Source of the DNA: a virus
Taxonomy: Duplodnaviria > Heunggongvirae > Uroviricota > Caudoviricetes
DNA: 35,093 bases
Strand: one strand, 5' to 3'
IMG/VR virus record: IMGVR_UViG_2529293015_000001
Made by a program: the position numbers and the translations under genes. Shown piece after piece: positions 2,176 to 35,093 of the stretch (position 1 is the first letter of the stretch; each line of letters starts with the position of its first letter). Under the pieces are notes generated by a model that worked only from the letters and a program-made list of their open reading frames with translations, searched no databases and had not been told where the DNA came from.

Positions 2176-2201
2176 GGGAGGGCTTAGCCCTCCCTCTTTT
2201 T
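2176..2201. terminator. Bidirectional intrinsic terminator between convergent genes
   Basis: Perfect 8-bp GC-rich stem GGGAGGGC/GCCCTCCC (2176-2183, 2187-2194), loop TTA, then TCTTTTT; A/T run on the other side as well. Confidence 0.7.
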
Positions 2202-3243
2202 ACAGGTTAGCGTTTGGGTTTTGTTGTTGGGGAGCTGTTTTTATAGGCGCTCCCAGGTTTTTAGTAAACCACTCAACGACTCTGTTTATAATAATTGGCT
2301 GATACCATGTCTTATCGCCATGCTCGGCCCCTTCTACCAGAACGTACTCAGCGTTATCGCTGTTCTTCTTCAACATCCTGAATAGTTTGGCGCTTTGCTC
2401 CGGTGAAACCAGAGTGTCTTTGCTACCATGCATAATAAGAAATGGAGGTTTTACTCCTTTCATATGTCCGATTGGACTGGCGTTTAGCGCTTTTTCTTTT
2501 GACGCTGTGATGGGGGCTCCCGCAAAATTTCTGAATGCAGGGCCATTGATCATTAAGGCTTCGGTTACGGCAGGAGAGCGATGAACCTCCTGAACTGATT
2601 CAGGGAACCCCTCGCCAATATTCAACAAGTCAGAAATTCCATAAAGTGTGGCAACTGCCTGAACATCTGAGGATTGCTGAAGAAAGTCACCTTTATCAAA
2701 GGTTTTGTCACCATTTGTAGTTCCCATCATCTGGGCAAGCCATCCACCGGCAGAGTCACCCAGAACTCCGATTCTTTGAGGATCAATCCCATAATCGCTG
2801 GCATGCTCTCTCAGGTAACGTATTGCAGCTTTTCCATCCTCAACTGGTGCTGGAAATGTATCAGGAATTGTTCGGTATTCTACAGCGGCCACAACAAAAC
2901 CAGCTTCTGCCAGAGCCATTCTCATTTCAATAAATTTGTCATGTTCAGAAGACATGAATCCGCCGCCGGGATAATAAATAATGGCTGGTTTTAAATCATT
3001 TGTTCGCGGGACAAGAACTGACATGTGAAGCTGTCTGACAGAACGAGTTCCTTTTATCTGGGAGTAAACAACATCACCAATGAGATCGACCTGGTTTCTG
3101 GTCGGTGAAACACTAATGATATCTGCGCCCGGGGTGTAACCAGGAAGATTAGTCTGGACAGGTGTTGCACAACTCCCGACCGACATGGCCATTGACATAC
3201 CATACAATAGTGTTGCAGATGATAATATCTTGTTAATTTTCAT
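2200..3243 (-). CDS. Lipoprotein alpha/beta-hydrolase, hormone-sensitive-lipase-type esterase/lipase
   Basis: 347 aa; N-terminal signal with lipobox-like VGSC; HGG-like oxyanion motif YYPGGGF; nucleophile elbow GDSAG; later Asp and His consistent with a catalytic triad. Confidence 0.65.
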   Translation of the reverse strand: MKINKILSSATLLYGMSMAMSVGSCATPVQTNLPGYTPGADIISVSPTRNQVDLIGDVVYSQIKGTRSVRQLHMSVLVPRTNDLKPAIIYYPGGGFMSSEHDKFIEMRMALAEAGFVVAAVEYRTIPDTFPAPVEDGKAAIRYLREHASDYGIDPQRIGVLGDSAGGWLAQMMGTTNGDKTFDKGDFLQQSSDVQAVATLYGISDLLNIGEGFPESVQEVHRSPAVTEALMINGPAFRNFAGAPITASKEKALNASPIGHMKGVKPPFLIMHGSKDTLVSPEQSAKLFRMLKKNSDNAEYVLVEGAEHGDKTWYQPIIINRVVEWFTKNLGAPIKTAPQQQNPNANL

Positions 3244-5878: not shown

Positions 5879-6036
5879 TATTATTGCAACGACATTTATA
5901 ATACCGTTGCTTTATTGTAACGGTGTTCCCTGCTGTAGCCTTATTTTTTTGTGGGTTTTTTCTTGCTGAAGTTTGGCAAAGTGAACTTTGTATGCATATA
6001 CTTCATCCAAATATTCAGTAATATCAGGTGGATGAT

Positions 6037-6771
6037 ATGGCAATTACATGTTCAGTTATATTGGTTCTGGAGTCGTTTGATGTGCCTTTGGGAAAGAATA
6101 GAGTGTTTCTGGAAAAAGGCTCATCTGTACTTGTTGACTATGGAACCAGAGATTTTTTTCTGACATATCCGGAAAGAGTTATAGTAGCGGATTTTGGTGG
6201 TGAATTTATTAGCCGCTATTTGAAAGCTAATAATCTAAGGGGTTTTTCTGATTGTAGGGAATATCCATCTTATATAAAAACAAATTTTGCTGATTTCAGT
6301 CTAATTAAGGGGTTAATTAGTTGGGCTAATCACTGCACTGAATACATTGAAGTTTTAGATGAGTCTATTGCATTTACATGCCTATCCGCATTTGCGTCGG
6401 AAAAACAATTTACAATATTCCTGTTTGGATGTCTGAAAAGTGTAGGGGCTAAAGTTAAAGCGATTATTCATACGGATATGTCTGCACCCTGGCGTCTTAA
6501 AGATATATCTTCAAGATTATATCTCAGCGAAAGTTTGCTAAAGAGGAAATTGAGAGAAGAAGGTCTGTCATTCAGTAAAATTATACTTGATGAGAGGATG
6601 CGGATGGCTGAATATTTACTCAGCACTCGTTGCTATTCTATTCGCAAAGTAGCCGAGGTCTGTGGTTATGTAAGTGTCTCGTACTTTGTTCATGTATTTA
6701 GATGTTATTTTGGTATTTCTCCAAACCAGTATTCACAGAAGAACTCAGAAAGTGAGATTATCACTCACTAG
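6037..6771 (+). CDS. AraC-family transcriptional regulator of the AppY/YdeO/GadX-like subfamily; moron
   Basis: C-terminal twin helix-turn-helix typical of AraC/XylS (…IRKVAEVCGYVSVSYFVHVFRCYFGISPNQY); N-terminus M-x3-CSV parallels the appY-like ORF at 34362; AT-rich island; ATG 6037 with AGGTG upstream (GTG 6028 alternative). Confidence 0.75.
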   Translation: MAITCSVILVLESFDVPLGKNRVFLEKGSSVLVDYGTRDFFLTYPERVIVADFGGEFISRYLKANNLRGFSDCREYPSYIKTNFADFSLIKGLISWANHCTEYIEVLDESIAFTCLSAFASEKQFTIFLFGCLKSVGAKVKAIIHTDMSAPWRLKDISSRLYLSESLLKRKLREEGLSFSKIILDERMRMAEYLLSTRCYSIRKVAEVCGYVSVSYFVHVFRCYFGISPNQYSQKNSESEIITH

Positions 6772-7859: not shown

Positions 7860-8393
7860 ATGAACGCAAAAATCAAATACGGCCTGTCAGCGGCCGTTCT
7901 GGCGCTGATTGGAGCAGGCGCATCTGCTCCTGAGATACTTGACCAGTTTCTGGATGAAAAAGAGGGTAACCACACTACGGCATACCGCGATGGTTCCGGC
8001 ATATGGACCATCTGCCGCGGTGCCACGATAGTAGATGGTAAACCTGTTATTCCGGGCATGACACTGACGAAGGAAAAATGCGTTCAGGTTAATGCCATTG
8101 AGCGTGATAAGGCGCTGGCATGGGTGGATCGCAATATTAAAGTAACACTGACCGAACCACAAAAAGCGGGTATCGCGTCATTTTGTCCCTATAACATTGG
8201 CCCCGGTAAGTGTTTTCCGTCGACGTTTTATAAGCGGCTGAATGCCGGTGATCGTAAGGGTGCATGCGAGGCGATTCGCTGGTGGATAAAAGATGGTGGG
8301 CGCGATTGCCGCATACGTTCAAATAACTGCTATGGACAGGTTATTCGCCGTGACCAGGAAAGCGCATTAGCCTGTTGGGGGATAGATCAGTGA
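7860..8393 (+). CDS. rrrD: SAR endolysin, lysozyme (GH24-like) with N-terminal signal-arrest-release domain
   Basis: 177 aa; [45 protein letters not shown]... recalled as near-identical to DLP12 RrrD; hydrophobic Gly/Ala-rich N-terminus fits a SAR domain and the pinholin partner. Confidence 0.85.
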
Positions 8394-8851
8394 GCAGAGT
8401 CGCCGCGATTATTTATGCTCTGGTTATCTGCATCATCGTCTGCCTGTCATGGGCTGTTAATCATTACCGTGATAACGCCATTACCTACAAAGCCCAGCGC
8501 GACAAAAATGCCAAAGAACTGAAGCTGGCGAACGCGGCAATTACTGACATGCAGATGCGTCAGCGTGATGTTGCTGCGCTCGATGCAAAATACACGAAGG
8601 AGTTAGCTGATGCGAAAGCTGAAAATGATGCTCTGCGTGATGATGTTGCCGCTGGTCGTCGTCGGTTGCACATCAAAGCAGTCTGTCAGTCAGTGCGTGA
8701 AGCCACCACCGCCTCCGGCGTGGATAATGCAGCCTCCCCCCGACTGGCAGACACCGCTGAACAGGATTATTTCACCCTCAGAGAGAGGCTGATCACTATG
8801 CAAAAACAACTGGAAGGAACCCAGAAGTATATTAATGAGCAGTGCAGATAG
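8390..8851 (+). CDS. rzpD: Rz i-spanin
   Basis: GTG 8390 overlaps endolysin stop (GTGA); N-terminal TM helix then coiled-coil-like region; matches recalled DLP12 RzpD; ORF track extends to TTG 8375. Confidence 0.8.
8610..8792 (+). CDS. rzoD: Rz1 o-spanin lipoprotein, embedded in +1 frame inside Rz
   Basis: 60 aa; SD AAGGAG 8 nt upstream; signal peptide with lipobox VVGC; Pro-rich mature part (PPPPPAW...PPPDW). Confidence 0.75.
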
Positions 8852-25421: not shown

Positions 25422-28400
25422 ATGGGTAAAGGCAGCAGTAAGGGGCATACCCCGCGCGAAGCGAAGGATAACCTGAAATCCACGCAGCTGCTGAGTGTGA
25501 TCGATGCCATCAGCGAAGGGCCGATTGAAGGTCCGGTGGATGGATTAAAAAGCGTGCTGCTGAACAGTACACCGGTGCTGGACAGTGAGGGGAATACCAA
25601 CATCTCCGGTGTCACGGTGGTGTTCCGGGCAGGTGAGCAGGAGCAGACACCGCCGGAGGGATTTGAATCCTCCGGTTCCGAGACGGTGCTGGGTACGGAA
25701 GTGAAATACGAAACGCCGATCACCCGGACCATCACGTCTGCAAACATCGACCGTCTGCGCTTTACCTTCGGTGTGCAGGCACTGGTGGAAACCACCTCAA
25801 AGGGTGACCGGAATCCGTCGGAAGTCCGCCTGCTGGTTCAGATACAACGTAACGGTGGCTGGGTGACAGAAAAAGACATCACCATTAAGGGCAAAACCAC
25901 GTCGCAGTATCTGGCCTCGGTGGTGGTGGATAACCTGCCGCCGCGACCGTTCAATATCCGGATGCGCAGGATGACACCGGACAGCACCACAGACCAGCTG
26001 CAGAACAAAACGCTCTGGTCGTCATACACCGAAATCATCGATGTGAAACAGTGCTACCCGAACACGGCACTGGTCGGCGTGCAGGTGGATTCGGAGCAGT
26101 TCGGCAGCCAGCAGGTGAGCCGTAATTATCATCTTCGCGGGCGCATTCTGCAGGTGCCGTCGAACTATAACCCGCAGACGCGGCAATACAGCGGTATCTG
26201 GGACGGGACGTTTAAACCGGCATACAGCAACAACATGGCCTGGTGTCTGTGGGATATGCTGACCCATCCGCGCTACGGCATGGGGAAGCGTCTCGGTGCG
26301 GCGGATGTGGACAAATGGGCGCTGTATGTCATCGGCCAGAATTGCGACCAGTCGGTGCCGGATGGCTTTGGTGGCACGGAGCCGCGCATCACCTGTAACG
26401 CTTACCTGACCACGCAGCGCAAGGCGTGGGATGTGCTCAGTGATTTCTGCTCGGCGATGCGCTGTATGCCGGTATGGAACGGGCAGACGCTGACGTTCGT
26501 GCAGGACCGACCGTCGGATAAGGTGTGGACCTATAACCGCAGTAATGTGGTGATGCCGGATGATGGCGCGCCGTTCCGCTACAGCTTCAGCGCCCTGAAG
26601 GACCGCCATAATGCCGTTGAGGTGAACTGGATTGACCCGAATAACGGCTGGGAGACGGCGACAGAGCTTGTTGAAGATACGCAGGCCATTCTCCGTTACG
26701 GTCGTAACGTCACGAAGATGGATGCCTTTGGCTGTACCAGCCGGGGGCAAGCACACCGCGCCGGGCTGTGGCTGATTAAAACGGAGCTGCTGGAAACGCA
26801 GACCGTGGACTTCAGCGTGGGTGCAGAAGGGCTTCGCCATGTACCGGGCGATGTCATTGAAATCTGTGATGATGACTATGCGGGTATCAGCATCGGCGGG
26901 CGCGTGCTGGCGGTGAACAGCCAGACGCGGACACTGACGCTCGACCGTGAAATCACGCTGCCATCCTCCGGCACCACGCTGATAAGCCTGGTTGACGGAC
27001 AGGGGAATCCGGTCAGCGTGGAGGTCCAGTCCGTCACCGACGGCGTGAAGGTGAAAGTGAGCCGGGTTCCTGACGGCGTTGCCGAGTACAGCGTGTGGGG
27101 GCTGAAGCTGCCGACGCTGCGCCAGCGCCTGTTCCGCTGTGTGAGTATCCGTGAGAACGATGACGGCACGTATGCCATCACTGCCGTGCAGCATGTGCCG
27201 GAGAAAGAAGCCATCGTGGATAACGGGGCGCACTTTGACGGCGACCAGAGCGGAACGGTGAATGGCGTTACTCCGCCAGCAGTGCAGCACCTGACCGCAG
27301 AAGTCACCGCAGACAGCGGGGAATACCAGGTGCTGGCGCGCTGGGATACGCCGAAGGTGGTGAAGGGGGTGAGCTTTATGCTTCGCCTGACCGTGGCAGC
27401 GGATGACGGCAGTGAGCGGCTGGTCAGCACGGCCCGGACGACGGAAACCACATACCGCTTCAGGCAACTGGCGCTGGGGCGTTACACGCTGACGGTCCGG
27501 GCGGTAAATGCGTGGGGACAGCAGGGCGATCCGGCATCGGTATCGTTCCGGATTGCCGCACCGGCAGCGCCGTCGCGGATTGAGCTGACGCCGGGCTATT
27601 TTCAGATCACCGCCACGCCGCATCTTGCGGTTTATGATCCGACGGTACAGTTTGAGTTCTGGTTCTCGGAAAAGCGGATTGCGGATATCAGGCAGGTTGA
27701 AGCCAGCGCGCGTTATCTTGGTACGGCGCTGTACTGGATAGCCGCCAGTATCAATATCAAACCGGGCCATGATTATTATTTTTACATTCGCAGTGTGAAC
27801 ACCGTTGGCAAATCGGCATTCGTGGAGGCTGTTGGCCAGCCGAGTGATGATGCATCCGGCTATCTGGATTTTTTCAAAGGCGAGATAGGGAAAACCCATC
27901 TGGCTCAGGAGCTGTGGACGCAGATTGATAACGGTCAGCTTGCGCCTGACCTGGCTGAAATCAGGACGTCCATTACGGATGTCAGCAATGAAGTCACGCA
28001 GACCGTCAATAAGAAACTGGAAGACCAGAGTGCGGCAATTCAGCAGATACAGAAGGTTCAGGTTGATACAAATAATAACCTGAACAGCATGTGGGCTGTG
28101 AAGCTGCAGCAGATGCAGGACGGACGCCTTTATATCGCGGGTATTGGTGCCGGTATTGAGAATACCCCTGACGGCATGCAGAGTCAGGTGCTGCTGGCGG
28201 CGGACAGGATTGCGATGGTTAATCCTGCGAATGGCAACACAAAGCCGATGTTTGTTGGTCAGGGCGATCAGATATTCATGAACGAAGTGTTCCTGAAATA
28301 TCTGACGGCTCCCACCATTACCAGCGGCGGTAATCCTCCGGCATTTTCCCTGACACCGGACGGGCGGCTGACGGCGAAAAATGCCGATATCAGCGGTAAC

Positions 28401-28901
28401 GTGAATGCGAACTCCGGGACGCTCAACAACGTCACGATTAACGAGAACTGCCGGGTTCTGGGAAAACTGTCCGCGAACCAGATTGAAGGCGATCTCGTTA
28501 AAACAGTGGGCAAAGCTTTCCCCCGGGACTCCCGTGCACCGGAGCGGTGGCCATCAGGGACCATTACCGTCAGGATTTATGACGATCAGCCGTTTGACCG
28601 GCAGATTGTTATTCCGGCGGTGGCATTCAGCGGCGCTAAACATGAGAGAGAGCATACTGATATTTACTCCTCATGCCGTCTGATAGTGCGGAAAAACGGT
28701 GCTGAAATTTATAACCGTACCGCGCTGGATAATACGCTGATTTACAGTGGCGTTATTGATATGCCTGCCGGTCACGGTCACATGACACTGGAGTTTTCGG
28801 TGTCAGCATGGCTGGTAAATGGCTGGTATCCCACAGCAAGTATCAGCGATTTGCTGGTTGTTGTGATGAAGAAAGCCACTGCAGGCATCACTATTAGCTG
28901 A
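25422..28901 (+). CDS. J: Central tail fiber / host-specificity protein J
   Basis: 1159 aa (about 27 aa longer than the 1132 aa recalled for lambda J); N-terminal [24 protein letters not shown]... as in lambda. Confidence 0.9.
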
Positions 28902-28968: not shown

Positions 28969-29568
28969 ATGCGTAAATTATGTGCTGTTATTCTGTCCGC
29001 AGTAGTCTGGCTGGTTGCCGCTGGTACGCCAGCGAGCGCAGCAGAGCATCAGTCCACACTAAGCGCCGGGTATCTTCAGACCCATACTGATATGCCAGGC
29101 AGCGATGACCTGAAGGGCATTAATGTGAAATACCGTTATGAATTTACGGACACGCTGGGGCTGGTGACGTCATTCAGTTATGCCAATGCCAAAGATGAGC
29201 AAAAAACGCATTACAGCGATACCCGCTGGCATGAAGATTCAGTGCGTAACCGCTGGTTCAGCATGATGGCGGGGCCATCTGTACGCGTGAATGAATGGTT
29301 CAGTGCTTATGCGATGGCAGGTGTGGCTTACAGCCGTGTTTCGACGTTCTCCGGGGATTATCTCCGCGTAACTGACAGCAAGGGGAAAACGCACGATGTG
29401 CTGACCGGAAGTGATGACGATCGCCACAGCAACACGTCTCTGGCGTGGGGAGCTGGCGTGCAGTTTAACCCGACCGAATCCGTGGCCATTGATATTGCTT
29501 ATGAAGGCTCCGGCAGTGGCGACTGGCGCACTGACGGTTTCATCGTGGGTGTCGGTTATAAGTTCTGA
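28969..29568 (+). CDS. lom: Lom outer-membrane protein (Ail/Lom/PagC family)
   Basis: 199 aa; signal peptide ...AAGTPASAAEH; beta-barrel-like alternating pattern; C-terminal ...GVGYKF; SD GAGAGG. Confidence 0.8.
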   Translation: MRKLCAVILSAVVWLVAAGTPASAAEHQSTLSAGYLQTHTDMPGSDDLKGINVKYRYEFTDTLGLVTSFSYANAKDEQKTHYSDTRWHEDSVRNRWFSMMAGPSVRVNEWFSAYAMAGVAYSRVSTFSGDYLRVTDSKGKTHDVLTGSDDDRHSNTSLAWGAGVQFNPTESVAIDIAYEGSGSGDWRTDGFIVGVGYKF

Positions 29569-29622: not shown

Positions 29623-29632
29623 TGGAGTGGAT

Positions 29633-32026
29633 ATGGCAGCAGTAAAAATCTCAGGTGTGCTGAAAGATGGTGCGGGAAAACCAATACAGAACTGCACTAT
29701 TCAACTGAAGGCAAAGCGTAACAGCACCACGGTACTGGTGAACACGGTGGCCTCTGAAAATCCGGATGAAGCCGGGCGTTACAGCATGGATGTTGAGTAT
29801 GGCCAGTACAGCGTCATCCTGCTGGTTGAAGGTTTTCCGCCTTCACATGCCGGGACCATTACCGTCTATGAAGGCTCCAGACCAGGTACGCTGAATGATT
29901 TTCTCGGTGCCATGACGGAAGATGATGTCATGCCGGAGGCATTGCGTCGTTTTGAGGAAATGGTGGAAGAAGCGGCACGCAACGCTGAAGCCGCCTCTCA
30001 GAGCGCAGCGGCGGCAAAGAAATCAGAAACTGCAGCGGCATCATCGAAGAACGCGGCGAAAACCTCAGAAACGAATGCAGCTAATAGTGCACAGGCGGCA
30101 GCGGCCTCACAGACTGCATCAGCAAACTCCGCGACAGCAGCCAAAAAATCAGAAACCAACGCGAAAAATAGCGAGACAGCCGCAAAGACGAGCGAAACCA
30201 ACGCAAAGTCCAGCCAGACGGCAGCGAAGACCAGCGAAACGAATGCTAAAGCCAGTGAAACTGCGGCAAAAAACAGCCAGGTTGCAGCAGCCCAAAGCGA
30301 GAGCGCGGCAGCCGGTTCTGCGACTTCAGCAGCTGGATCAGCAACTGCTGCGGCTAACAACCAGAAAGCTGCGAAGACGAGTGAAACTAACGCAAAGTCC
30401 AGCCAGACGGCAGCGAAGACCAGCGAAACGAATGCCAAAGCCAGTGAAACTGCGGCGAAAAGCAGTCAGGATGCAGCAGCTGAAAGCGAGAGTGCCGCAG
30501 CCAGTTCTGCAAGTGCGGCGGCTTCTTCTGCCACTGCATCAGCCAACAGTCAAAAAGCTGCAAAAACCAGTGAAACCAACGCAAAGGCGAGCGAGACTGC
30601 GGCGGATAACTCAGCGAAAGCATCGGCAGCAAGCCAGACGGCAGCTAAAGAAAGCGAAGACGCAGCCAGGGAGTACGCAAGCCAGGCTGCGGAGCCGTAT
30701 AAACAAGTTTTGCAGCCGCTTCCAGATGTGTGGATACCGTTTAACGATTCTATGGATATGATCACCGGATTTGCGCCGGGATATAAAAAAATTACTGTTG
30801 GTGCGGATGTTGTCACTATGCCTAGTGACAAGATTGTTAGTTTTACCCGTGCATCAACCGCTACATATATTAATAAATCTGGTAGGCTTAGTGTCGCTGC
30901 AATTGATGAACCACGATTTGAAAAAAATGGTTTATTGATTGAAGGTCAACGAACTAACTATTTTGTTAAATCTAACACCCCCGCCGAATGGACTAGCACA
31001 AGCAATATTGATAAAAGCAATAATGGCGTTGATGAATTTGGTTTTTCATTTGCAAAAATGAAAACTAAGGAAAATATGACGGGTCAATCATCCGCTCTTA
31101 GTTTGCATACATGCAGCGCATCCCGTGGTGTTGATGTTAGTGGTGATAATAAGTTTTGCACTGTTTCTTGTCGTGTTAAGGCTCCTGATGGCCTCCGTTG
31201 CCGTTTACGCTTTGAAAAATACGACGGATCAGCTTACACCTTTTTGGGTGATGCTTATTTGACCTTCGGTAAAACTTTGACGATCAAAAAAACTGGCGGT
31301 GCTGCTAACCGTATAACGGCAAATGCTATTAAAGACCCGGTTACTGGTTGGGTCTTCTATGAAGCAACGATAGAAGCGGTTGAAGGGGAATCCTTGATTG
31401 GCGCAATGATTCAGTATGCGCCGAAAGAGGGTGGGAAGACAGAAGCTGATGATTATATCTATCTTGCCACACCGCAATTCGAAAATGGTAGTTGTGCGTC
31501 ATCTTTTATTATTACTACAACAGCCCCTTCTACCCGCGCTAGTGATATGGTTAATATTCCTATTACCAATAATTTGGGATCTATTCCGTTGAGTTGCTTA
31601 GTTGAGGTGCATCGCAATTGGAATATTTCTCCTAGCTCTGCTCCTCGAATTGTCCACACAATTGGGGTCGCTTCAAATGACGAGCAAATGATTTTGGCGT
31701 TTAGGAATCCAACAAGTGGTAATGTCGAACCGTTGCCATATTGTCAATTCGGCGTTAAACAATCATACACTCCGGTTGAAGTAAAAACTGGTGGTTTGAT
31801 GGTTGCTGGATTTGTTTGTAAATCCAATTATGAATTTAAATGTGTTGTGAATGGTACATTTGCATCAACTCAAACGACAACATGGAATAATCCGGGCGCA
31901 GCGTCACAGATTAGAATGGGTGGATCGTCTGGTGGCGGAGAGCGGCATCTGTTCGGTCATTTAAGAAATCTCCGTCTTTGGCATAAAGCGTTAACTGATG
32001 CACAAATGGGGGAGTCAGTAGAATGA
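29633..32026 (+). CDS. stf: Side tail fiber Stf: lambda-like N-terminal anchor, Ala/Ser/Thr-rich repeat shaft, foreign lectin-like (LamG/concanavalin-like) distal domain
   Basis: First ~120 aa (MAAVKISGVLKDGAGKPIQNCTIQLKAKRNSTT...) match recalled lambda Stf; low-GC C-terminal half from ~30700; C-terminal ...HLRNLRLWHKALTDAQMGE resembles the end of LamG-type jelly rolls; ATG 29633 with GGAG upstream. Confidence 0.8.
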   Translation: MAAVKISGVLKDGAGKPIQNCTIQLKAKRNSTTVLVNTVASENPDEAGRYSMDVEYGQYSVILLVEGFPPSHAGTITVYEGSRPGTLNDFLGAMTEDDVMPEALRRFEEMVEEAARNAEAASQSAAAAKKSETAAASSKNAAKTSETNAANSAQAAAASQTASANSATAAKKSETNAKNSETAAKTSETNAKSSQTAAKTSETNAKASETAAKNSQVAAAQSESAAAGSATSAAGSATAAANNQKAAKTSETNAKSSQTAAKTSETNAKASETAAKSSQDAAAESESAAASSASAAASSATASANSQKAAKTSETNAKASETAADNSAKASAASQTAAKESEDAAREYASQAAEPYKQVLQPLPDVWIPFNDSMDMITGFAPGYKKITVGADVVTMPSDKIVSFTRASTATYINKSGRLSVAAIDEPRFEKNGLLIEGQRTNYFVKSNTPAEWTSTSNIDKSNNGVDEFGFSFAKMKTKENMTGQSSALSLHTCSASRGVDVSGDNKFCTVSCRVKAPDGLRCRLRFEKYDGSAYTFLGDAYLTFGKTLTIKKTGGAANRITANAIKDPVTGWVFYEATIEAVEGESLIGAMIQYAPKEGGKTEADDYIYLATPQFENGSCASSFIITTTAPSTRASDMVNIPITNNLGSIPLSCLVEVHRNWNISPSSAPRIVHTIGVASNDEQMILAFRNPTSGNVEPLPYCQFGVKQSYTPVEVKTGGLMVAGFVCKSNYEFKCVVNGTFASTQTTTWNNPGAASQIRMGGSSGGGERHLFGHLRNLRLWHKALTDAQMGESVE
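30182..30630 (+). repeat. In-frame tandem repeats of 189 bp (63 aa) in the stf shaft, about 2.4 copies plus degenerate copies upstream
   Basis: Units starting 30182, 30371, 30560 are near-identical (GC[AG]AAGAC[CG]AG[CT]GAAAC...); encode AAKTSETNAKSSQTAAKTSETNAKASETAAK... Confidence 0.85.
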
Positions 32027-32301
32027 AAGATTTTACGCTGAAGTTTCGAGATCGGGAAGACTATAAAGCATTCTTGAATGAAATTAATTGGGAAGATAAC
32101 GAAGTATTGCAAGATCAACTCCTGATTGATGAAATTGGATTCGCTTTCGATGAAGTCGGCAGAAATGCCGACGACGAACCAATTTATCAACGACGCGACG
32201 GTTATTTTGTAAATATTAGAATCTTAGATGAAAAACTGGACGCATCACCATTTACCGGAAATGTAGTGATTCTTGATGCTCCTCTTCGTGAATGGGCTTG
32301 A
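32023..32301 (+). CDS. Hypothetical 92-aa acidic protein, translationally coupled to stf
   Basis: ATG overlaps stf stop (GAATGA); AT-rich; no family recognised; sits where a Tfa chaperone would normally follow stf. Confidence 0.4.
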   Translation: MKDFTLKFRDREDYKAFLNEINWEDNEVLQDQLLIDEIGFAFDEVGRNADDEPIYQRRDGYFVNIRILDEKLDASPFTGNVVILDAPLREWA

Positions 32302-32311
32302 GGGGTAATAT

Positions 32312-33352
32312 ATGGCGAGCTTAACAGTAATTCCTGATGACATCAAAACGCTAAAATCCGACGTTAGCAAATTAAAAAACGATCAAGGAAGCTACGCAAC
32401 AAAATCATATGTAGACAATAAAACAACATGGAATAGTTATTGCAATGTAATCTATGATCAAAAGACATTGCCGACCACTGGAACTATATTTAGCGGTAAG
32501 ATTCACTTGTCAAATAAGACAGGAGAAACTGAAAACGCTTATAGTGAGATGTACACCAGAAAAAATATTGACGGTACAAAAGATACAATGACAAGGATTG
32601 TCACACACAATGGAATAAAAGGTATCTTTTGGGATTTTAGCGATCTTTACGGCGGAACATTAATTTTTCCAGGCAGTGATGGTTACCTTAAGATGGGGAA
32701 CTGTCTCATGTCGTATGGTGTGCGGGGAAGTAACGCGCTTATTAAATTTGATTACACCGACACATTACAGATCAAATATGCCAATCATGGGTCAACCATG
32801 ACATTAAACACACAGGGGACCGCTCATTCTGGCGCTACTACTAGTTTGTGGGGTAACTCTACCCGTCCGGTTGTATATGAAGTTGGTGCTGATGGTGGCG
32901 CGTATATGTTCTATGCGCAGAAAAATACCGATAACACCTATATGTTAAGCGTTAATGGTGCATGTCATGCCACCGCATTTAACCAGCATTCCGACCGGGA
33001 TCTGAAAGACAACATTCAGGTGATCGATAATGCAACCGACCGCATCCGTAAAATGAACGGCTATACATACACGCTTAAAGAAAACGGTATGCCCTATGCT
33101 GGTGTCATTGCACAGGAAGCTCTGGAAGCAATCCCAGAAGTTGTAGGTTCCGCAATGAAATATCAGGACGGTGCGGGCGGATCGGAAGGTGAAGAAGGTG
33201 AACGTTATTACACAGTAGATTATTCTGGTGTTACTGGCTTGCTTGTTCAGGTAGCCAGAGAGTCAGACGACAGAATAACAGCACTGGAAGAAGAAAACGC
33301 AGAATTAAGACAAAGATTATCTGCAATTGAGGCGGCGCTTGCGTCTAAATAA
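32312..33352 (+). CDS. Second tail-fiber-like protein with C-terminal intramolecular chaperone (peptidase S74-like) domain
   Basis: 346 aa; SD GAGGGG 6 nt upstream; C-terminal ~120 aa (…NQHSDRDLKDNIQVIDNATDRIRKMNGYTYTLKE…GVIAQEALEAIPEVV…YTVDYSGVTGLLVQVARE…) match the recalled consensus of self-cleaving fiber/tailspike chaperone domains, then a short coiled-coil tail. Confidence 0.6.
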   Translation: MASLTVIPDDIKTLKSDVSKLKNDQGSYATKSYVDNKTTWNSYCNVIYDQKTLPTTGTIFSGKIHLSNKTGETENAYSEMYTRKNIDGTKDTMTRIVTHNGIKGIFWDFSDLYGGTLIFPGSDGYLKMGNCLMSYGVRGSNALIKFDYTDTLQIKYANHGSTMTLNTQGTAHSGATTSLWGNSTRPVVYEVGADGGAYMFYAQKNTDNTYMLSVNGACHATAFNQHSDRDLKDNIQVIDNATDRIRKMNGYTYTLKENGMPYAGVIAQEALEAIPEVVGSAMKYQDGAGGSEGEEGERYYTVDYSGVTGLLVQVARESDDRITALEEENAELRQRLSAIEAALASK

Positions 33353-33358
33353 TATCAA

Positions 33359-33378
33359 GGGGCCGAGCGCCCCGTTTT
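33359..33378 (+). terminator. Weak intrinsic terminator after the second fiber gene
   Basis: GGGGC-CGAGC-GCCCC followed by GTTTTATT. Confidence 0.4.
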
Positions 33379-33388
33379 ATTGGGTAGG

Positions 33389-33688
33389 ATGAAAATGGAT
33401 ATAACACCTTTCCTTCATGCGCTTTGTGCTGTGGCTGCGCAGGTACTGATTGGCCTTTTTACCGGAAACTGGGCTTACGGGGCGATAGCCGGTTGTACGT
33501 TCTTCATTGCGCGCGAACACACCCAGGCAGAATATCGCTGGATCGAAATGTTCGGGCATGGCAAGCGAATGAATATGCCGTGGTGGGGCGGTTTTGATCC
33601 GCGCGCATGGGATGTGGCAAGCCTGATGGATTTTGCTGTGCCGGTGGTGGCGTGTCTGCTGGTCTGGCTGTTGGTTAATCGTGGGTGA
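33389..33688 (+). CDS. Small hydrophobic inner-membrane protein (two or three predicted TM helices); moron
   Basis: About 99 aa; hydrophobic stretches AVAAQVLIGLF, AIAGCTFFIA, AVPVVACLLVWLLV; higher GC than flanks; ATG 33389 or 33395. Confidence 0.4.
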   Translation: MKMDITPFLHALCAVAAQVLIGLFTGNWAYGAIAGCTFFIAREHTQAEYRWIEMFGHGKRMNMPWWGGFDPRAWDVASLMDFAVPVVACLLVWLLVNRG

Positions 33689-34361
33689 AAAAAGGTGAGC
33701 TGTATATGCAACGGAGGAAGAAAACTCGTTGCTGGAAGCCTTGAAGAAGTATCGGGTGTTGCTGAACCGTGTGGACACTTCCGTAGCACCAGATATCGAG
33801 TGGCTTATTCAACCATAATAAACAGTATGTATATCATAGGTTATTAATTGTGAGTTTTTTCGGTGTGTTATTTGTTTGTTTGATGTTATGCTTTTGCGCC
33901 CCAAAAGGTTGTTTAGATGTATTTTATCAATTGATTTTCAATATCGTTTAATAAAGAAAAATTAAGCAAGCTGGATGTTGGTTTTTTGTTAATTGAATGG
34001 TTCTAATAATGTTTTTTTACTGTTGTTGAATGTGACTTGATAAGAGATGCAAGTAAAAATGATGCTCTTTTTATTTTAAATTCAAACGGTTGATATATAT
34101 AGCAAGAGGTTTCAGGTGCGTTGTAGTGAGTTTATGTTAATAAAAAGCATAGTAAACGTTGAAAAATGTAACTTTGAAATACGTTAGAATAAAAAACAAT
34201 ATACATATAATAATTTAATCTTAAATGAAATTTATTAAAATTTGCAAACTATAATTTTGTGTATAAAAATATAAATGCACATCATCCTGATTATGATTGT
34301 GTATTTAATTGGTTGTTATTTGACTACTATCAACTTGTTTTAATTTTATGATAGGTGCAAG

Positions 34362-34739
34362 ATGGATTATGTTTGCTCCGTAGTTTTCATCTGTCAATCA
34401 TTTGATTTAATTATAAACAGGAGAGTTATCTCGTTCAAAAAAAATTCATTGTTTATTGTAAGCGACAAAATTAGAAGAGAGTTACCAGTATGCCCCTCTA
34501 AACTAAGAATTGTTGATATAGATAAGAAAACATGTTTATCCTTTTTTATCGACGTGAATAATGAGTTGCCTGGCAAATTTACTCTTGATAAGAATGGCTA
34601 TATTGCTGAAGAGGAACCTCCATTATCGCTTGTTTTTTCTCTGTTTGAAGGGATTAAAATAGCAGACTCACACTCCCTTTGGTTAAAAGAAAGACTATGT
34701 ACTGATGAATCCCCTAATGATTTTGGTAAAAATCATTAA
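34362..34739 (+). pseudogene. appY: appY-like AraC-family regulator truncated after about codon 113 by IS10; the last 12 codons are read from the IS10 end
   Basis: [30 protein letters not shown]... recalled as the AppY N-terminus (DLP12); homology ends where the IS10 outside end begins (34702); the AraC helix-turn-helix part is missing. Confidence 0.6.
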
Positions 34740-34747
34740 GTTAAGGT

Positions 34748-34816
34748 GGATACACATCTTGTCATATGATCAAATGGTTTCGCGAAAAATCAATAATCAG
34801 ACAACAAGATGTGCGA
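34748..34816 (-). ncRNA. IS10 RNA-OUT antisense RNA (position estimated by offset from the IS10 end)
   Basis: Known IS10 organisation: ~69-nt RNA-OUT from pOUT, complementary to the 5' end of the transposase mRNA; coordinates are the IS10 positions about 47-115 mapped onto the window, not an independent prediction. Confidence 0.4.
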
Positions 34817-35093
34817 ACTCGATATTTTACACGACTCTCTTTACCAATTCTGCCCCGAATTACACTTAAAACGACTCAACAGCTTAACGTTGGCTTGCCA
34901 CGCATTACTTGACTGTAAAACTCTCACTCTTACCGAACTTGGCCGTAACCTGCCAACCAAAGCGAGAACAAAACATAACATCAAACGAATCGACCGGTTG
35001 TTAGGTAATCGTCACCTCCACAAAGAGCGACTCGCTGTATACCGTTGGCATGCTAGCTTTATCTGTTCGGGCAATACGATGCCCATTGTACTT
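34809..35093 (+). CDS. IS10 transposase, N-terminal 95 codons (partial)
   Basis: MCELDILHDSLYQFCPELHLKRLNSLTLACHALLDCKTLTLTELGRNLPTKARTKHNIKRIDRLLGNRHLHKERLAVYRWHASF... matches recalled IS10 transposase; no stop inside the window. Confidence 0.85.
   Translation, partial: MCELDILHDSLYQFCPELHLKRLNSLTLACHALLDCKTLTLTELGRNLPTKARTKHNIKRIDRLLGNRHLHKERLAVYRWHASFICSGNTMPIVL

Follow-up and report, generated by a model that had tools for sequence, protein, structure and literature searches.

Introduction

Small membrane proteins that act against incoming phage DNA at the cell envelope are, in location and kind of protein, the closest described counterparts of the gene reported here, which encodes a 97-amino-acid (aa) membrane protein near one end of a 35,093-nucleotide (nt) stretch of DNA from a virus of the Caudoviricetes (IMG/VR record IMGVR_UViG_2529293015_000001). 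We refer to this whole stretch as the window; it is a lambdoid prophage at the DLP12 site. In the tail-gene region of the lambdoid phage HK97, gp15 is a small inner-membrane protein that blocks genome entry and leaves the outer-membrane receptor unmasked; it is related to YebO and has bacterial homologues outside prophages (PMC3594210). The P22 protein SieA is an inner-membrane injection blocker (PMC3594210), and the T4 protein Imm is a small membrane protein; both stop incoming DNA at the envelope (PMC11436027, PMC10883804). Cor, found in phi80, N15 and T1-like phages, inactivates FhuA (PMC3594210, PMC11436027). DicB, which acts on ManYZ, is a small cryptic-prophage protein reported to inhibit inner-membrane phage receptors (PMC6832061).

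Like gp15, the protein encoded in the window is a small inner-membrane protein from a lambdoid tail region with homologues in bacterial chromosomes outside prophages. However, gp15 is encoded between the tail chaperone and tape measure genes, with a promoter and a terminator of its own, and the prophage expresses it, whereas the protein described here has three helices, another conserved motif and no match to the YebO Pfam family, and its gene lacks a promoter-like site between the preceding hairpin and the start codon. With T4 Imm and P22 SieA it shares small size and a membrane location, and Imm shows that virulent phages also use such blockers. It has no sequence relationship to either (its matches are to unknown-function PHROGs, with none in Pfam), its conserved face is predicted to be cytoplasmic, and the Imm and SieA genes are without linkage to a receptor-binding-protein gene. 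The cor gene lies beside fibre genes, as does llp of phage T5, and both products are outer-membrane lipoproteins that each block one receptor, FhuA. Proximity to tail-fibre or receptor-binding genes is thus common to all three, but the protein here is a polytopic inner-membrane protein that is linked to many types of fibre and spike. DicB itself is soluble and cytoplasmic, and MinC mediates its action. The likeness to DicB would be one of logic, in that phage resistance arises from the cytoplasmic side via inner-membrane proteins needed for DNA entry; its sequence and genomic position are unrelated. Pfam holds models for T4 Imm, SieB, Bor, YebO/gp15, RexB and GtrA, none of which matched the protein at E values up to 1.

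Here we show that the gene belongs to a large, unnamed family linked to receptor-binding-protein genes across phage lineages. It is an uncharacterised accessory gene, for which we offer a role in superinfection exclusion as a proposal. Nothing in the analysis shows an unprecedented mechanism.

Gene call and coding evidence

The features that define the gene are as follows.
33395..33688, + strand: membrane-protein coding sequence, 97 aa, stop codon included in the span (profile match, homologues, fold, and pN/pS, the ratio of nonsynonymous to synonymous polymorphism)
33386..33389, + strand: Shine-Dalgarno-like AGGA, 5 nt 5' of ATG 33395, read from the sequence

The list of open reading frames (ORFs) of the window includes one that stops at 33688 (+ strand) and has a small, hydrophobic product. 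Three in-frame starts are available to it (TTG 33380, ATG 33389 and ATG 33395). An earlier note on this DNA, made from the letters and the ORF list, had placed the start at 33389, but the family-conserved start of the 97-aa gene (MDITPF...) is ATG 33395. We chose it because AGGA lies 5 nt 5' of this codon, because near-identical genomes carry a 294-bp RefSeq gene call there, because the PHROG 1443 profile starts at the same residue, and because the 5' sequence in the other junction found in E. coli (the phage-21 type, described below) is unrelated and carries AAGGAGG, at an equal distance from the start. ATG 33389 and TTG 33380 are not conserved in the family and are confined to the junction type of this window.

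The 97-aa ORF is a genuine protein-coding gene under purifying selection. Pooled pN/pS is 0.12 over 42 distinct full-length E. coli alleles, and none of these contains an internal stop. Two antisense ORFs, 33377-33778 and 33475-33789 (both on the - strand), are considered spurious because they overlap the 97-aa gene, which is backed by homologues, pN/pS and fold.

Protein family and distribution

The ORF matches PHROG 1443, a family of unknown function, with E=4.5e-59 (ORF residues 6-101 of 102 against profile positions 1-96 of 97). The earlier statement that no family could be recognised therefore holds for Pfam and NCBIfam, but the protein does belong to a large unnamed family. A word-indexed search returned 577 homologues, every one labelled 'hypothetical', and an exhaustive profile search gave 434 clusters at 50% identity. 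Among the best 150 of the 434 cluster representatives, proteins are 63-146 aa long and none has a fused domain. Three members (P0149, P0193 and P0260) have an insertion of ~45 aa in the loop, which repeats a QAEY/AEY-like motif (e.g., ...PDLQAEYARLSG...) and may have arisen when part of the conserved helix was duplicated internally.

Searches of the membrane protein against Pfam, NCBIfam and PADLOC gave nothing above threshold, and a Pfam scan of 36 distant family members gave no consistent match. The housekeeping membrane-protein family for which the earlier note had allowed did not appear in either Pfam or NCBIfam. A match to the PhoR N-terminal Pfam family is below threshold (14.1 bits, cutoff 27.1; E values of 0.0035-0.064 in three of 37 sequences) and probably compositional. 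PHROG matches are limited to families of unknown function and include no lysis PHROG. Comparison with the PDB and with known folds gave no similarity to an enzyme, a transporter or any other known fold. No paper on the gene was found in the literature by accession, PHROG id, FIG id or topic; a paper on the svsR small RNA concerns the cI region, which is a different locus.

Of 5426 complete E. coli genomes, 3547 (65%) contain DNA of the gene, at a median of 2 places each and at most 7. The family occurs in phage 21, in many lambda-like isolates, in Halomonas phage phiHAP-1 and in Aeromonas phages including jumbo phages, and it spans sipho-, myo-, podo- and jumbo phages. Apparently virulent phages also carry it (SU10-like and Aeromonas jumbo phages, with a remnant in a T1-like phage). 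A scan of one genome per species identified members in the enterobacterial genera Escherichia, Leclercia, Silvania, Pantoea and Phytobacter, in the other gammaproteobacterial genera Aeromonas and Halomonas, in the Betaproteobacteria Comamonas, Acidovorax and Pigmentiphaga, in the Alphaproteobacteria Chelativorans, Devosia and many Sphingomonadales, and in Desulfovibrio.

In the prophage at the DLP12 site of strain EcPF15 (NZ_CP054227.1; 3888-6479 in our locus L001), most head and tail genes have been reduced to several coding sequences annotated as partial, but the genes for the 93-aa protein, the S74 fibre and the 97-aa membrane protein are intact.

Linkage to receptor-binding-protein genes

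We surveyed the position of the gene with a second viral scan, centred on distant members, which yielded 69 non-redundant viral loci. The 5' neighbour lies on the same strand in 60 of the 69. It encodes at least 400 aa in 34 loci, and in 26 of those 34 it is no more than 60 nt away. Nineteen of the top 25 PHROG families of 5' neighbours are tail fibre, tailspike or tail proteins; the remaining six are unannotated. The family is linked to receptor-binding-protein genes across phage lineages.

The linkage extends beyond phages of E. coli, and in other lineages the gene lies 0-11 nt from a fibre or tailspike gene or overlaps it. Locus L177 has a J-like protein followed by a 636-aa fibre and, after a gap of 11 nt, the membrane-protein gene. 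In the podovirus-like locus L182 the gene starts 1 nt after a 924-aa tailspike gene and is followed by genes for a holin and an endolysin. The end of an S74-type fibre gene overlaps the start of the membrane-protein gene in L169 (gap of -3 nt), and a 948-aa fibre gene precedes it by 45 nt in L219. Prophages of Comamonas and Pantoea have one or two small ORFs between the gene for a J-like protein and the membrane-protein gene. The order in Halomonas phage phiHAP-1 is fibre, tail fibre assembly gene, membrane-protein gene, sheath. We take the interval from fibre assembly gene to sheath to correspond to the P2 G-FI interval, which holds the conversion gene Z/fun; the likeness is one of position alone, and no homology is claimed.

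The remnant in the T1-like Escherichia phage HC6 (2965-3120 in locus L160) is unannotated and frameshifted (...RRRANIPWWGGFDWRAWDLPSLLD*) and lies directly 3' of an 859-aa fibre gene. We take this fibre to be of the S74 type, judging by eye from its C-terminal sequence. Salmonella phage ST1UNAM and phages PBM-2 and PBM-3 have unannotated matches like that of HC6. In phage 21 (5386-8835 in locus L002), the sitABCD iron/manganese transporter operon lies 3' of the gene on the opposite strand, which places the phage 21 gene at the boundary between late operon and cargo.

There are exceptions to the linkage. The gene lies between the portal and major capsid genes in an SU10-like phage, and between a DarB-like gene and an HNH gene in the Aeromonas jumbo phage PS1. 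Five species representatives of Aeromonas share a conserved chromosomal order of pirin, the family member and RIO1, and the chromosomal copy adjoins ligA in several Sphingomonadales. No chromosomal neighbour is conserved across taxa; synteny is found within genera only (pirin/RIO1 in Aeromonas, ligA in some Sphingomonadales). One family member adjoins a gene for a KpsF/GutQ-like sugar isomerase.

Predicted fold, conserved residues and topology

AlphaFold2, run with a 25-sequence alignment, predicts three helices with a predicted local distance difference test score (pLDDT) of 92.3, in agreement with the earlier description of a small membrane protein with two or three hydrophobic helices. The parts of the protein are as follows.
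33404..33463, + strand: helix 1, residues 4-23, transmembrane helix (TM) 1, with the near-invariant His8 (AlphaFold2, conservation)
33470..33553, + strand: helix 2, residues 26-53, its first half hydrophobic (TM2; AlphaFold2)
33512..33613, + strand: conserved segment, residues 40-73 (REHTQAEYRWI...GKRMNMPWWGGFDPRAW), predicted to be cytoplasmic (conservation, positive-inside rule)
33614..33682, + strand: helix 3, residues 74-96, TM3, with S76, D79 and the near-invariant P83 (AlphaFold2, conservation)

The second half of helix 2 carries the conserved motif R40-E41-x-x-Q44-A45-E46-Y47-R48-x-I50. Over 94 full-length representatives, H8, R40, E41, Q44, A45, E46, W72 and P83 are at least 95% conserved, and G29, Y47, R48, I50, R58, P62 and D79 are 75-90% conserved. 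The homologue from the SU10-like phage is 36-41% identical and has the same predicted architecture, with the highest confidence in the conserved loop.

Lysine and arginine residues number 6.1 on average on the side of the N-terminus and loop, against 0.9 on the other side, and 89 of the 94 members agree. From this bias, under the positive-inside rule, we predict that the N-terminus is inside, the conserved loop cytoplasmic and the C-terminus outside, with almost nothing exposed to the periplasm. Judging from helix lengths, His8, Arg40-Glu41, Gln44, Ser76 and Asp79 would lie at a similar depth near the cytoplasmic interface.

The phage 21 record carries the annotation 'SignalP: 29 AA signal sequence', which would make the product a periplasmic protein with a cleaved signal peptide. 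This is unlikely because the N-terminus is acidic (M-D-I-T, with a median of zero lysines and arginines before helix 1 across the family) and because His8, within helix 1, is conserved (97%). Helix 1 has a pLDDT of 90-97 and is the first of three consecutive helices.

Fibre cassette, base composition and transcription

The genes around the membrane-protein gene are as follows.
25422-28901: J
28969-29568: Lom/Ail outer-membrane protein, full length, between J and stf (Pfam Ail_Lom, PF06316, E=7e-127)
29627..32026, + strand: side tail fibre (Stf), 799 aa (Pfam phage_tail_N)
32023..32301, + strand: 92-aa protein of unknown function (phrog_1361), overlapping the stf stop codon
32312..33352, + strand: 346-aa tail fibre with a C-terminal S74 intramolecular chaperone domain (Pfam Peptidase_S74; phrog_4563, tail fiber)
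33359..33380, + strand: terminator-like hairpin and T-run, with five G-C pairs and a 5-nt loop
33699..33812, + strand: remnant of a tail fibre assembly (Tfa) gene, last 38 codons (Pfam Caudo_TAP, E=2e-13)
33816-34361: AT-rich spacer
34362 onward: appY

The gene thus lies 3' of the fibre genes, as the earlier note had it, with Stf, the 92-aa protein and the S74 fibre all 5' of it; the S74 fibre gene is its immediate neighbour. The Tfa remnant is labelled as a partial tail fiber assembly protein in RefSeq and is equivalent to part of K-12 tfaX. Homology to the tfaX-appY part of the K-12 DLP12 region restarts at 33708, inside tfaX, and extends to 34701, and K-12 has no family member in its DLP12 region at this same appY-proximal chromosomal site. 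The Tfa remnant is found 3' of the membrane-protein gene in at least 52 related loci, phage 21 included. It marks the right-hand recombination edge of an inserted fibre cassette, and the membrane-protein gene appears to have arrived inside this cassette, which replaced the 5' part of tfa. The membrane protein looks non-essential, and its gene lies at the distal end of the tail-fibre module, a place that holds accessory and exclusion genes in many phages; to this extent the earlier note is borne out.

The membrane-protein gene has a GC content of 54.8%; values nearby are lower, with 38.7% in the 92-aa gene, 42.0% in the S74 fibre gene and 25% in the spacer that follows. Over the first 29 kb of the window, which are mostly prophage, GC content is 52.9%. 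A GC content above that of its neighbours, noted earlier, is therefore real when set against the flanking genes, but the value equals that of the phage backbone: the compositional outlier is the fibre cassette, and the membrane-protein gene matches the backbone.

The hairpin (GGGGC-cgagc-GCCCC, then GTTTTATT) closes the S74 fibre gene and ends 14 nt ahead of the start codon; it corresponds to the terminator reported 5' of the gene. It occurs in about 27 of the E. coli loci examined. The claim that the gene has its own start region stands as far as a ribosome-binding site is concerned, but our scan for sigma-70-like promoters, which was by consensus only, identified no site between hairpin and start. 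The single + strand match (33002-33031, 9 of 12 positions) lies 5' of the hairpin, and the region holds three promoter-like matches where chance alone would give 5.2. From 33688 to 34400, the end of the scanned region, the + strand showed no terminator-like site. Polymerase modified by a lambdoid Q protein would read through the hairpin.

Two types of junction occur in E. coli, of which the terminator type of this window is the rarer. In the phage-21 type, the gene starts 12 nt after the 92-aa gene, behind the AAGGAGG site and without the terminator. Its close spacing behind a structural gene and the missing promoter-like site make the membrane-protein gene look like the final cistron of the late (structural) operon.

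The 92-aa protein sits where Tfa would be and is probably an assembly chaperone of this fibre type. It is found in Escherichia alone among the loci examined, and we rejected it as an obligate partner of the membrane protein on this ground.

Possible functions

We tentatively propose that the protein is an exclusion factor that blocks injection or binds a host membrane protein, a possibility to which we give well under an even chance. Both the activity and its target are speculative. In this proposal, the three-helix inner-membrane protein would be the product of the final cistron of the late operon, immediately 3' of the genes for receptor-binding proteins, and would present the cluster of H8, R40-E41, Q44-A45-E46, W72, D79 and P83, with a Trp-rich loop, at the cytoplasmic face of the membrane. 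This conserved face would bind a conserved host inner-membrane component, and the genome of a second phage could then not cross the inner membrane, giving superinfection exclusion at the step of DNA entry.

Several observations are consistent with this. The family is constantly found beside receptor-binding genes, where known exclusion genes such as cor also sit, and a cor-like exclusion role is possible. The T5 gene llp is another exclusion gene in such a place. Injection blockers at the inner membrane have precedents in HK97 gp15, P22 SieA and T4 Imm. As with exclusion genes, temperate and apparently virulent phages both carry the family, so that a benefit would not be limited to lysogens. 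The intact copy in the heavily deleted EcPF15 prophage, the low pN/pS and the presence of the gene in most complete E. coli genomes also favour the proposal. Chromosomal orthologues are compatible with it, since gp15 likewise derives from the bacterial YebO family. A logic like that of DicB fits better than direct contact with a tail because the conserved surface is predicted to be cytoplasmic.

Other observations weigh against exclusion. The consensus scan found no promoter able to drive expression in a lysogen. With the conserved surface on the cytoplasmic side and almost no periplasmic exposure, the predicted topology would make direct contact with an incoming tail impossible. Fibres and spikes are very diverse and the membrane protein is highly conserved, for which a passenger at a hot spot at the end of an operon is an equally good account. 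Finally, the syntenic copies outside prophages, between pirin and RIO1 kinase genes in Aeromonas and beside ligA in Sphingomonadales, suggest that the protein has a role in the cell itself.

Another view, unlikely in our estimate, is that the gene is an auxiliary gene captured from bacterial chromosomes and encodes a minimal membrane enzyme or an ion-, metal- or ligand-binding protein. The buried polar cluster (His8, Arg40-Glu41, Gln44, Glu46 and Asp79) would then be a catalytic or ligand site at the inner-leaflet interface, and its targets might be lipid or polyprenyl-phosphate-linked glycan precursors, with altered surface receptors or envelope physiology late in infection as the result. Eight residues conserved at 95% or more in 94 representatives are unusual for fast-evolving phage exclusion proteins, the orthologues in Aeromonas and Sphingomonadales chromosomes are stable, one member lies beside the KpsF/GutQ-like sugar isomerase gene, and the 5' partners are often glycan-targeting tailspikes or S74 fibres. 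However, the protein has 97 residues and no likeness in sequence or fold to a known enzyme or transporter, its chromosomal neighbours differ between taxa, and the polar residues may do no more than hold three helices together. A further, very unlikely role is that of a helper of the adjacent receptor-binding protein, in which the membrane-anchored product would localise or mature the fibre or tailspike, or shield the glycan intermediates of the producing cell. The tight, often overlapping coupling to fibre and tailspike genes in sipho-, myo- and podoviruses, the recurrent association with fibres bearing an S74 chaperone (this window, L169 and the HC6 remnant) and the movement of the gene in E. 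coli within an exchanged fibre cassette, in place of the 5' part of tfa, favour such a helper, but the partners come from many unrelated families, some of which bring their own chaperones, and the SU10-like, Aeromonas jumbo and chromosomal members are not beside a fibre gene. We also know of no membrane step in fibre assembly.

A protein of lysis timing (a holin, an antiholin or a similar membrane regulator) is most improbable. The gene is small and apparently late, its product has three TMs like class I holins, and in one lineage alone (L182) it is located between a tailspike gene and a holin-endolysin pair. Yet the prophage in the window has its own lysis cassette about 25 kb away, the C-terminus ('...LLVNRG') is not a charged tail, the loop is conserved to an exceptional degree, no endolysin gene lies near the chromosomal orthologues, and no lysis PHROG or holin Pfam family was matched. 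The earlier note read the gene as a lysogenic-conversion moron. A classical moron of this kind would be transcribed in the lysogen by way of a separate promoter and alter a surface or virulence trait of the host; we consider this quite unlikely. By the definition of Hendrix and Juhala, a moron is additional DNA that related phages lack at that site, differs in GC content from the genes around it, carries a promoter and a terminator of its own and is expressed while the prophage is repressed (PMC3594210). The gene is extra DNA relative to the K-12 DLP12 region, its GC content contrasts locally with that of flanking genes, a hairpin precedes it, it lies at a prophage end beside cargo (e.g., sitABCD in phage 21), and it is very common in clinical E. 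coli genomes. Against this, neither a promoter-like site nor a downstream terminator-like site was detected in the consensus scan (to 34400), the gene is coupled at 12 nt to its 5' neighbour in phage 21 and most E. coli loci, its GC content is that of the phage backbone, and apparently virulent phages carry it. Because the family occurs in such phages and, in synteny, in Aeromonas chromosomes, 'lysogenic conversion' is too narrow a term. The earlier comparison with lom was wrong in detail, as the real Lom of the window is encoded at 28969-29568 and the membrane protein has no Ail_Lom match. The earlier interpretation was half right: the gene encodes an accessory membrane protein in an exclusion-gene slot, but it is no demonstrable moron, bears no likeness to lom and is not confined to lysogeny. 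The probability that these readings leave over belongs to something else.

A wider formulation, which we hold to be doubtful, cuts across the proposals of exclusion and of an enzyme. The family would be a widely mobile, unrecognised class of membrane proteins linked to receptor-binding-protein genes, whose near-invariant, cytoplasm-facing H / RE-x2-QAE / W / D / P site acts biochemically on a conserved inner-membrane target or lipid, either as a minimal enzyme or by specifically inhibiting a host transporter that phage DNA uses for entry, and it would serve the same purpose in phages and in the chromosomes of Aeromonas and Sphingomonadales.

About two-thirds of complete E. coli genomes carry the gene, as a rule in several prophages each, and so does the classic phage 21; it has neither a name nor a Pfam family. 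Its conservation is far above that usual for phage accessory genes, and its constant position behind receptor-binding genes across morphotypes suggests that its function is a general one, connected with infection or entry. If the product is an exclusion factor, it would affect the susceptibility of common clinical E. coli lineages to therapeutic or temperate phages, and would add a new cytoplasmic-face mechanism to the short list of injection blocks that are understood. A minimal membrane enzyme would be of biochemical interest.

Other features of the window

The prophage lysis cassette, about 25 kb 5' of the membrane-protein gene, comprises genes for lysozyme (7860-8393) and Rz (8375-8851). 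Apparent cargo 5' of this cassette includes genes for a 695-aa protein with five Big_1/invasin-type Ig repeats (76-2163), an alpha/beta-hydrolase (BD-FAE/esterase) on the opposite strand (2200-3243, -) and an AraC-family regulator (6028-6771). The stf gene contains long low-complexity repeats rich in Ala, Ser, Thr and Lys at ~30000-30700 (...KTSETNAKSSQTAAKTSETNAKASETAAK...), with an AT skew of +0.45-0.68.

The structured RNAs detected in 32000-35093 are RNA-OUT of IS10 (34747-34816, - strand, Rfam 98.8 bits) and a sub-threshold match to Rfam IS009 over the Tfa remnant (59 bits, threshold 117). The IS10 end (34702-35093) interrupts appY. Homology to K-12 appY ends at 34701, where the IS10 terminal sequence CTGATGAATCCCCTAATGATTTTGG starts, and from this junction we conclude that the 125-aa 'appY' ORF (34362-34739) is a truncated gene fused to IS10.

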